Positions 55,426 to 59,532 of a stretch of DNA of 64,000 nucleotides are shown piece by piece. A program made the translations under genes and the position numbers. The stretch lies in assembly GCF_045037415.1 (NCBI RefSeq), contig NZ_CP173438.1; one strand, written 5' to 3'. The notes beneath the pieces were generated by a model. It was given only the letters and a program-made list of their open reading frames with translations. It was not told where the DNA came from and did not search any database. The DNA is from Escherichia coli. Lineage in GTDB: Bacteria > Pseudomonadota > Gammaproteobacteria > Enterobacterales > Enterobacteriaceae. Positions within the stretch are counted from its first letter, which is position 1. Each line of letters begins with the position of its first letter.

Positions 55426-58400
55426 TTAGTCAAACGGCGGTGGGGCCAGCACTTCACGATTACCGTTGTGCCCCTGTTCGCTGACAATCCCCTGCGCTTC
55501 CATCTGTTCGATAATACGCGCTGCACGGTTATAACCAATGCGGAACTGACGCTGTACGCCAGAAATTGATGCTTTGCGTTTTTCAGTGACAAACTGCACC
55601 GCCTGATCGAACAACGGATCCAGCTCTTCAGCGCCATCGAAACCGCCCGCGCCACCTTCGCTTTCGCTGTCGGAGGTGATGCCATCAACATACTGTGGGC
55701 GACCACGCGCTTTCCAGTCCTGCACCACGGCATGAACTTCTTGATCGCGAACAAAAGCACCATGGACACGTACCGGCAAAGTGGAGTTCGGCCCAGAGTA
55801 GAGCATATCCCCCATACCCAGCAGTGATTCCGCACCAGCCTGATCAAGAATGGTACGTGAGTCAATCTTACTGGATACGGTAAAGGCGATACGGGTCGGA
55901 ATATTCGCTTTAATCAGACCAGTAATAACATCAACCGATGGACGCTGCGTTGCCAGTACGAGGTGGATACCCGCGGCACGAGCTTTTTGCGCCAGACGTG
56001 CTATCAGCTCTTCCACTTTTTTACCTACCGTCATCATCAGGTCGGCAAATTCGTCCACCAACACCACTATGTACGGTTCTTTTTTCAGCACCGGATGCTG
56101 CGCATCCATACTATCACCCGGCTTCCAGTACGGGTCTGGAATCGGACGCATCATGCGATCGGCTTCAGCAATTTTTTCGTTATAACCCGCCAGATTACGC
56201 ACACCCAGCGCAGACATCAGTTTATAACGACGCTCCATCTCGTTAACACACCAGCGCAGCGCGTTGGCGGCATCTTTCATATCAGTAACAACTTCCGTTA
56301 ACAGGTGCGGAATGCCTTCATAAACCGAAAGCTCCAGCATTTTCGGGTCGATCATGATGAAACGCACATCTTCTGGCTGTGCTTTATAAAGCATGCTCAG
56401 GATCATCGCGTTCACCCCGACAGACTTACCGGAACCGGTAGTCCCCGCAACCAACAAGTGCGGCATTTTCGCCAGATCGGCAACCACCGGCTCACCGGCG
56501 ATATCTTTACCCAGCACCACGGTTAATGGCGACGGATTATCGCGGAATTTGGCGTTATCCAAAACCTCGCGCAGATAAACGGTTTGTCGTTTTTTATTCG
56601 GTAACTCCAGACCTACATAGGGTTTGCCAGGAATAACTTCAACGACACGCACCGCCACCGTCGAAAGTGAACGGGCAAGGTCACGTGACAAGTTAGAAAT
56701 GCGCGCCGCTTTTACGCCCGGTGCCAGGTTCAATTCAAAGCGAGTGATAACTGGCCCCGGAGAGTAATTGACAACATCGGCTTTAATACGGAAATCAGCC
56801 AGACGCGCTTCTACCAGGCGCGCCATTTGTTCAAGCGCAAAGGTATCTACCGGCTCCACTTCGCTCGGCGGCGGTGTCAGCAAATCCAGAGAAGGCAGTG
56901 GCGTCGTCGGTTTATGCAACGGACGGCTGTCGCCATTACGCATCAACAGCGGATGAAGCAGGGTATCCTGCGGCTGTGGCGCAACTGGCTGTTGCGGCTG
57001 CTGATATTGCGGCTGTGGTACAACCGGCTGCTGCGGCTGCTGATACTGCGGCTGCTGTGTAACCGGCTGTTGTGGCTGCTGATACTGCGGCTGCTGTGCA
57101 ACCGGTTGTTGTGGCTGCTGATATTGCTGCTGCGGTGCAACCGGTTGTTGCGGCTGCTGATACTGCGGCTGCGGTGCAACCGGTTGTTGCGGCTGCTGAT
57201 ATTGCTGCTGCGGTGCTACCGGTTGTTGCGGCTGCTGTACAGGTTCAACAATTGGCGTAAACAGCGGTTCGTGTGGACCATCATCCAGCAACGCTTTCAT
57301 TGGCGAAAATTCAAAATCATCCAGCGAGAACGGATTCGCCCCAGCCGGTTGTTCGCCGGAATAACGTTGTTGTTGAGTTTGAGCAAACTGACGAGCCAGT
57401 TCTGCCTCTGCCGCAGCATCTGCATCTTCTGTGTTCACGGGCACATCATGTTGATACTGTTCGCCATAGCGTTGCTGCTGCGTCTGGGCGAACTGACGTG
57501 CCAGTTCATCCTGCTGCATCGCATCGATTTCATCATCGTTGTACTGATCGCCAGAATCGTACTGATTACGCTGGGCTTCACGGGCTTTTTCTTCTGCCGC
57601 ACGCTGTGAGGGCAGCTTAATACCGTAAGACGCCAGTTCACGACGAGTTGGCACGCGGATGCGTTTCGGTCGTGGCAACTGCGGGCCAATCCCCTCTTTG
57701 ACCTGCGGACGCGGTCCACCGCTATTTGCCAGACTGAAGACTGGCGCGGCAACGGTTGCGGCAGCCCCCGTCGCCAGTGTCGCTTTTTTCACGCCAGATG
57801 CCAGCGGAGAAACGGCGGCAGCGGCTTCCACTGGAGGTACTGCTGCAACAGAAGGTGCTTTTAGCGAAGATTTGATCGGTTCTGGTTCTTTAACAGGTTC
57901 TGGAATCGGTTGATACCAGGCCGCAAGTTGTTCGCGTTCACGGGCTCGCTTCTCTTCCACTTCTTCAAAGTAGTAAAGCGGCGGACGCGTGGGTTTTGTC
58001 TCTTCTACAACGGGTTCAGGCTCCACAACAGGCTGCTGTTCAACAGGTTGCGGCTGTTGGTACAACGGTTCCTGAGCGGCTGGCTGCTGATAAGTTTGCT
58101 CAGTCTGGTATGTAGACTGTGGAGCAAAAGTGGATTGCTGCTCTTCGGCTTGCCAGGCGTTACCTGCCACCGCTTGTTCTGGCGCAGGGGCGTAATACGG
58201 CTGTTGCGCAGGCTGTTCCGCCGCAGTTGCGTAATACGGTTGCTGAACAGGTTGTTCCGCCGCAGGAGCGTAGTAAGGTTGTTGCGCAGGTTGTTCAGCT
58301 GCAGGTGCATAATACGGCTGCTGTGGCTGTACTGGTTGTTGCAGCGGCTCATTATATTGCACTGCAGGCTGCGCATATTGTGGCTGCTGTGGGTAACCTT

Positions 58401-59532
58401 CCGGTGCAGGAGCAATAACCGGTTCTCCCGTTTGCGGCCCCGGTACAGGCTGCCAGGCTACTGTAGATTGCGCAGGTGGAACATCAACAGAGGCAACTGG
58501 CGGCGTCTGAGTCACAGGTTCAACCGGTGCAGCCCAGCTTTGTGTCGCCGTGGTAGCAGCAGCTGCTACAGCAACAGGTTCGGTAATTGGCGCACCGTTT
58601 AATAATGGATCGTACTCGTCATATTCTGGCTGCGTTGCACGATTGCCCGAAAAGAGGACGTCGTCAGGGTCGGCAGCCACACCGCGTGCAGTGTAGGTAA
58701 TCTCTTCGTCATCATCCATCCGCTTACCGGAGAACAACGCAGCGTCTGTTTGCCGCCCCATCGGATTAATGAATTTTTCCGCCAACCGTTTACGACGCGC
58801 TAGCGCGCCGCGAAGAATACGGGCACGGCGTGATTCATGCTGTTTGCCGTGATTTTCATCTTCATACTCTTCGTCGTCTTCATACTCATCTTCATCGACC
58901 CAGGTATCATCGCGACGGGTACGATTACTGGCGAAGGTAAGAATATTTAAAATCCAGCCGCCGAGTTTTTCAGCAATGGTCACCCATGACCAACCGGTGA
59001 ACAGCGTCAGGCCCGCTGCCCAAACGCAGAGCAGCGCAATAGTTCCCCCGCTACTGTGTAGCAGTGGTTGTAGCGTAGTGCTTAGTAAGCTGCCAATGAC
59101 GCCACCGGAGGCAAAATACCAGATATCGTCAGCGTTGATTGCCGCCAGACCACAGGAGGTAAGGATGAGCGCCAAAACGCCAATGATGCGTAGCGAAACG
59201 GCAAAATAATCAATGTATTCGTCGCTGGACTGATGACGCCAGGCAAACCAACAACCGCCGACAATAATGACGGGAATGGTGTAAGCCATCACGCCAAAAA
59301 TAAAGAACAGCGTATCTGCCAGCCACGCACCGGGCATCCCACCTAAATTATGGATAGGTTCATGCCAGGCCGTTTGCGACCAGCTGGGGTCCGAAGGGTT
59401 AAAGCTTAGTAAGGCAGCCATCAACCAGACGGCAAACAGGACAATAAGGATCAGCAACGCCTCCAGAAGGCGGCGGCCGCTACTTAACTTTGTCAATGTG
59501 ACTTCTTTGTCTTCAGTGTATTCCTGGCTCAA
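55426..59532 (-). CDS. ftsK: DNA translocase FtsK
   Basis: 1368 aa; N-terminal TM domain, long PQ-rich linker, C-terminal motor with Walker A GTTGSGKS. Confidence 0.9.
56986..57240. repeat. Tandem ~39-bp repeats encoding the PQ-rich FtsK linker
   Basis: Repeated ggctgctgatactgcggctgctgtgcaaccggttgttgc-type units encoding [13 protein letters not shown] iterations. Confidence 0.7.

Follow-up and report, generated by a model that had tools for sequence, protein, structure and literature searches.

A longer FtsK in an Escherichia coli genome: two in-frame 39-bp repeat arrays in the linker, one of them the typing locus CVN001

A 64,000-nucleotide stretch of Escherichia coli DNA (contig NZ_CP173438.1, here called the window) encodes an FtsK protein of 1368 aa, whereas that of K-12 has 1329 aa. 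An earlier note on this DNA gave these two lengths, and both the translation of the open reading frame and an alignment to NP_415410 confirm them. The question raised by this locus is whether the additional 39 aa reflect an assembly error, a functional change, or ordinary variation. The earlier note attributed all of them to an expanded array of perfect repeats in the proline- and glutamine-rich (PQ) linker, which it regarded as probably neutral but prone to slippage and mis-assembly. We conclude that the flagged feature is real but ordinary and already known, being a routine strain-typing marker that occurs here as a common allele. The array is very probably an in-frame, imperfect 39-bp minisatellite (CVN001) in the FtsK linker, whose copy number changes by in-register unequal recombination or slippage, giving rise to a lineage-associated and near-neutral polymorphism.

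The gene and its conserved domains were located as follows.

55426-59532, minus strand: ftsK coding sequence with a TTG start, 1368 aa, 4107 bp with the stop codon included (open reading frame list and translation)
58960-59475, minus strand, aa 20-191: FtsK_4TM membrane domain (Pfam PF13491, E 5e-42), the N-terminal boundary of the linker
55933-56898, minus strand, aa 879-979 and 987-1200: FtsK alpha domain (PF17854, E 1e-29) and FtsK/SpoIIIE motor (PF01580, E 9e-88)
55444-55626, minus strand, aa 1303-1363: FtsK gamma domain (Pfam PF09397, E 3e-28)

The open reading frame at 55426-59532 is the E. coli ortholog of the DNA translocase FtsK, an identity given by its domain order, its near-identity to the K-12 protein, and its neighbourhood. 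The four domains occur in the expected order (4TM, alpha, motor, gamma), and each scores far above its Pfam gathering score. The protein is 99% identical to FtsK of K-12 MG1655 (b0890, NP_415410, 1329 aa in RefSeq), which has the same domain order, TTG start, and lrp-ftsK-lolA-rarA neighbourhood. This gene order was found in every locus fetched, and the open reading frames that flank ftsK in the window are of matching size. A search of 5,426 complete E. coli genomes matched ftsK in 5,425 of them, and the matched feature is annotated as ftsK.

Since the Pfam domains end at aa 191 and resume at aa 879, where the alpha and motor domains form the C-terminal boundary, we define the linker as residues 192-878. 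Its P+Q content is 31%, and both 39-bp arrays described below lie inside it and outside all Pfam domains. Published accounts portray the FtsK linker as an unstructured, PQ-rich segment that differs widely between species in length and composition, that FtsK requires for full activity, and that makes contact with divisome proteins through some of its parts (PMC5357621, PMC3870252, PMC2680272). The N-terminal domain of FtsK is called essential (PMC2680272). The linker corresponds to that of FtsKL in the studies of Bigot et al. 2004 and Dubarry et al. 2010, a PQ-rich, unstructured region of ~650 aa between 4TM and motor, and this region holds both arrays. Another paper (PMC6113214) says nothing of the FtsK linker.

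The earlier note was right to place a 39-bp tandem array in the distal part of this linker, and the array is bracketed by two published primers.

57332-57352, minus strand: CVN001 forward primer ECMLV4-F, an exact and single match in the window
56965-57237, minus strand, aa 766-856: PQ array, the MLVA locus CVN001, seven 39-bp units in codon register
56876-56897, plus strand: CVN001 reverse primer ECMLV4-R, an exact and single match in the window, with none expected by chance

Tandem Repeats Finder reports this array at 56968-57237 with a period of 39 bp, 6.9 copies, 90% matches, and a score of 400. Each unit encodes 13 aa with the pattern QQPQQPV(A/T/V)(P/Q)Q(Q/P)Q(Y/D), six units ending in QY and the terminal one in QD. 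Proline and glutamine make up 77% of the residues, and 22 aa separate the end of the array from the FtsK alpha domain. The match at lag 39 is 0.897, compared with 0.50 +/- 0.03 (maximum 0.59) when the codons of this segment were shuffled 2000 times. A value so far above the shuffle range shows that PQ codon composition alone does not produce the periodicity. The units are not the perfect repeats that had been described: none of the seven is identical to another, pairwise identities range from 31 to 38 of 39 positions (79-97%), and at lag 39 no exact run exceeds 34 nt.

An MLVA locus listed as 'CNV001 (ftsK)' is given with its primers in Table 1 of a typing study (PMC11773471). Because both CVN001 primers match exactly, one on either side, the PQ array is CVN001, a VNTR already known from generic E. 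coli MLVA, which the earlier note did not recognise. The primers are convergent and predict an amplicon of 477 bp in the window and 438 bp in K-12. This 39-bp difference is consistent with a repeat period of 39 bp, which Lindstedt et al. 2007 reportedly gave for CVN001. The locus (generic E. coli MLVA; Lindstedt et al., GECM-7/GECM-10) has been used in many typing studies. Nothing substantive sets the array of the window apart from it; MLVA reads fragment size only, and the window sequence adds the unit composition, which is ABCDEFG when each distinct 39-bp PQ unit is given one letter. In Swedish ESBL-producing E. coli, alleles 4, 5, 6, 7, and 8 were found by fragment size at 1, 40, 40, 13, and 5%, and O25b-ST131 was reported to be monomorphic at CVN001 (PMC5217547). 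MLVA profiles of ST131 begin with 6 (PMC3407997). If MLVA counting follows the QY convention, the six QY-ending units of the window correspond to one of the two alleles that are commonest in the published data.

Salmonella enterica has a similar marker in ftsK. Its VNTR STTR7/SENTR2 is likewise a 39-bp tandem repeat used in MLVA, with 9.3 copies in S. Enteritidis (PMC2430564), and a natural 28-aa linker indel in S. Enteritidis (aa 757-784) has a position in the protein close to that of the PQ array of the window (PMC6137255). The Salmonella locus differs in species and copy number, and position and period suggest that the arrays are orthologous.

The PQ array accounts for only a part of the additional length. 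Aligning the window and K-12 proteins leaves two gaps, one of 26 aa (columns 411-436) and one of 13 aa (columns 801-813). The attribution of the whole excess to the PQ array therefore stands for 13 aa and fails for the other 26 aa, which are two extra units of a second array.

58168-58323, minus strand, aa 404-455: second linker array, four 39-bp units with the pattern QQPYYA(P/T)A(A/P)EQ(P/A)x, detected by Tandem Repeats Finder at periods of 39 and 78

This second array lies about 1 kb from the PQ array within ftsK. Its units are identical to one another at 29-33 of 39 positions, and its lag-39 match is 0.761 against 0.36 +/- 0.05 in codon shuffles. The window has four of these units and K-12 has two. 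In the literature on ftsK VNTRs we did not find the array at 58168-58323 named as a typing locus. The PQ array differs between the two strains as well, with six QY-ending units in the window and five in K-12, so that K-12 has two units fewer in the second array and one fewer in the PQ array. An equal count in the reference, which the earlier note had named as its refutation, is thus not what K-12 shows. Comparisons with K-12 should accordingly examine both arrays and not just the conspicuous PQ array.

The PQ array of the window did not arise from that of K-12 by adding one unit in one step. The unit maps, ABCDEFG in the window and CHIJKL in K-12, have a single identical 39-bp unit in common, and we rejected a one-step, one-unit expansion of the K-12 allele. 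With so little in common, the two arrays are best regarded as diverged lineage alleles.

With 801-bp queries, each centred on one of the arrays, we searched the 5,426 complete E. coli genomes and read 60 rows at even steps down the score ranking, a sample that is not a phylogenetically corrected random one. For the PQ segment, 12 of the 60 rows could not be read from the spans alone. Among the 48 readable rows, a segment of the same length as in the window is commonest (26 rows), followed by a K-12-like segment shorter by 39 bp (15 rows). The rest are shorter by 24 bp (3 rows), 78 bp (2 rows), or 195 bp (1 row), or longer by 78 bp (1 row). Five of the 12 split rows were fetched and carry 3, 5, 7, 7, and 8 QY-ending units. 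The second array has four units in 21 of the sampled rows, three in 20, and two in 18. The PQ lengths in the genome sample agree with the published CVN001 allele frequencies. As its copy number is among the two commonest states, and is the commonest in the sample, the array of the window is 'expanded' only when K-12 serves as the reference and not for E. coli as a species.

The sequences of individual alleles reveal how the arrays differ. The alleles of the window, K-12, and 12 further genomes, 14 in total, carry 1-8 QY-ending units and 2-4 units of the second array, all in frame, and encode FtsK proteins of 1303-1381 aa. K-12 (CHIJKL) and CUVM53 (CHKL) differ by the in-register loss of two units. 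The O145 strain RM9872 carries MdaOJPQR (8 units, 1381 aa) and the O145:H28 strain RM13516 carries MR (2 units, 1303 aa), a difference of six interior units. This pair represents the largest in-register deletion among the alleles compared, and the PQ array can nearly vanish in a viable isolate. Strains ecoli019 and LD91-1 both have MZMZaObPc, in which the two-unit block MZ is duplicated. DETEC-P881 carries the window's allele minus one second-array unit, and its junction (aa 417-429) is a hybrid of window units 2 and 3, which is what unequal exchange inside a stretch common to both units would leave. The class shorter by 24 bp (SSGNw1 and two other sampled rows) is out of register, with an in-frame deletion of 8 aa inside the PQ array. 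Fragment-size MLVA would score alleles of this class as non-integer.

These end products suggest a mutational mechanism of unequal recombination or slippage. In this view the linker is a flexible, unstructured tether that joins the membrane/divisome domain to the DNA-translocase motor. The copy number would change when units with 79-97% identity recombine unequally in register or slip during replication, and each such event would gain or lose whole 13-aa units, leaving the reading frame and the flanking domains untouched. One 13-aa unit would alter the tether length by ~2% without touching a folded domain. The second 39-bp array, independent and within the same linker, would behave in the same way as the PQ array.

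Near-neutrality of these length changes appears probable, and the earlier note's core reading, neutral length variation through changes in repeat copy number, is supported. The length difference from K-12 represents a standing lineage-associated polymorphism without demonstrated phenotypic effect. The deletion studies of Bigot et al. 2004 and Dubarry et al. 2010 removed large blocks of the linker; we found no test of natural single-unit variants among the accessible FtsKL deletion studies, and no E. coli experiment in the literature searched that compares natural ftsK repeat-number alleles. Two S. Enteritidis strains whose ftsK linker alleles differ by 28 aa survived in egg white as before when these alleles were swapped, and this was the sole phenotype tested (PMC6137255).

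The alternative that fares best is that linker length is functionally tuned, with the number of units setting the reach and flexibility of the tether or the valency of its PQ motifs, and with lineage-specific optima under selection. We consider this unlikely. Such tuning would fit a linker that is needed for full FtsK activity and contacts divisome proteins with some of its parts (PMC5357621, PMC2680272). It would also fit the conservation of the units, as their peptides have stayed much more alike than their DNA and many differences between PQ units are synonymous, a pattern suggestive of some constraint on their sequence. Within lineages, moreover, the alleles seem to change little: about 550 records share at least 99% identity with the ftsK of the window, and O25b-ST131 is reported not to vary at CVN001 (PMC5217547). 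However, clonal inheritance alone accounts for such stability, and viable isolates span 1-8 QY-ending units, the two O145 strains having 2 and 8 units in total. The allele swap in Salmonella, which had no effect on the one phenotype tested, also speaks against tuning (PMC6137255). Compensation between the two arrays is not evident either, there being no clear negative relation across 14 allele pairs, a small and non-independent set.

A more specific version, to which we give slightly less credence still, is that the unit numbers of both arrays jointly set the tether length or the PQ motifs available for divisome contacts. Lineage combinations (4+6 in the B2 type, 2+5 in K-12) would then tune the timing and efficiency of the coupling between septation and chromosome unlinking. 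Were the tether's reach to depend on unit number, the natural alleles would form a ready series on how linker length couples translocation to septation; nothing in our data points there. We favour near-neutral variation of an in-frame minisatellite, in which two separate 39-bp arrays let FtsK length range over ~1303-1381 aa in E. coli. A departure from the 1329 aa of K-12 therefore signals neither error nor altered function.

Mis-assembly, in which short reads would have collapsed or expanded the array and left a wrong repeat count, is highly improbable. Tandem repeats do mis-assemble in general, and the PQ array is 273 bp long. Yet the entire 4107-bp ftsK, with both arrays, is 100% identical in independent complete genomes (SK1144, DFK.1, CREC-36, and AVS0756 among others), the 801-bp segment around the PQ array is 100% identical in further genomes, and the repeat count fits a PCR allele that is common in published data. 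The array also has a unique unit order, since no unit occurs twice. We thus reject this explanation, and the concern raised in the earlier note falls away. SK1144 is a phylogroup B2 strain (PMC12366417), and the window allele, with six QY-ending units, a terminal QD unit, and four units in the second array, is a common one of the phylogroup-B2 type. An ST131 assignment through the SK1144 literature goes no further than phylogroup B2, and no MLST gene lies within the region examined.

The least plausible alternative, a contingency (phase-variable) locus in which rapid repeat change would switch or modulate FtsK expression, is suggested by a tandem repeat within a coding sequence whose copy number differs between strains, but it is effectively refuted and was rejected. 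All length differences observed are multiples of 3 bp (39-bp steps and the class shorter by 24 bp) with none frameshifting, and all 14 alleles are full-length. Phase-variable genes have short, perfect tracts, whereas these units are imperfect and 39 bp long, and the N-terminal part of ftsK is essential for division.

A few further observations concern the gene and its linker. Among the 5,426 complete E. coli genomes, a single one lacks any match to ftsK, and nine matching places lie on plasmid-labelled records; replicons with wrong labels or fragments of the chromosome could be the cause. An antisense open reading frame of 260 aa (56827-57609, plus strand) spans the PQ array and is most likely an artefact, because CTG and CGG, the reverse complements of CAG and CCG, hold no stop codons. 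A dispersed motif occurs in two copies 35 aa apart in the linker (~57361-57508, minus strand, aa 676-724) and is identical in K-12. The acidic stretch of FtsK just past the membrane domain corresponds to a weak hexamer repeat on the plus strand at 58855-58896 (TTCATC x7, 66% matches).
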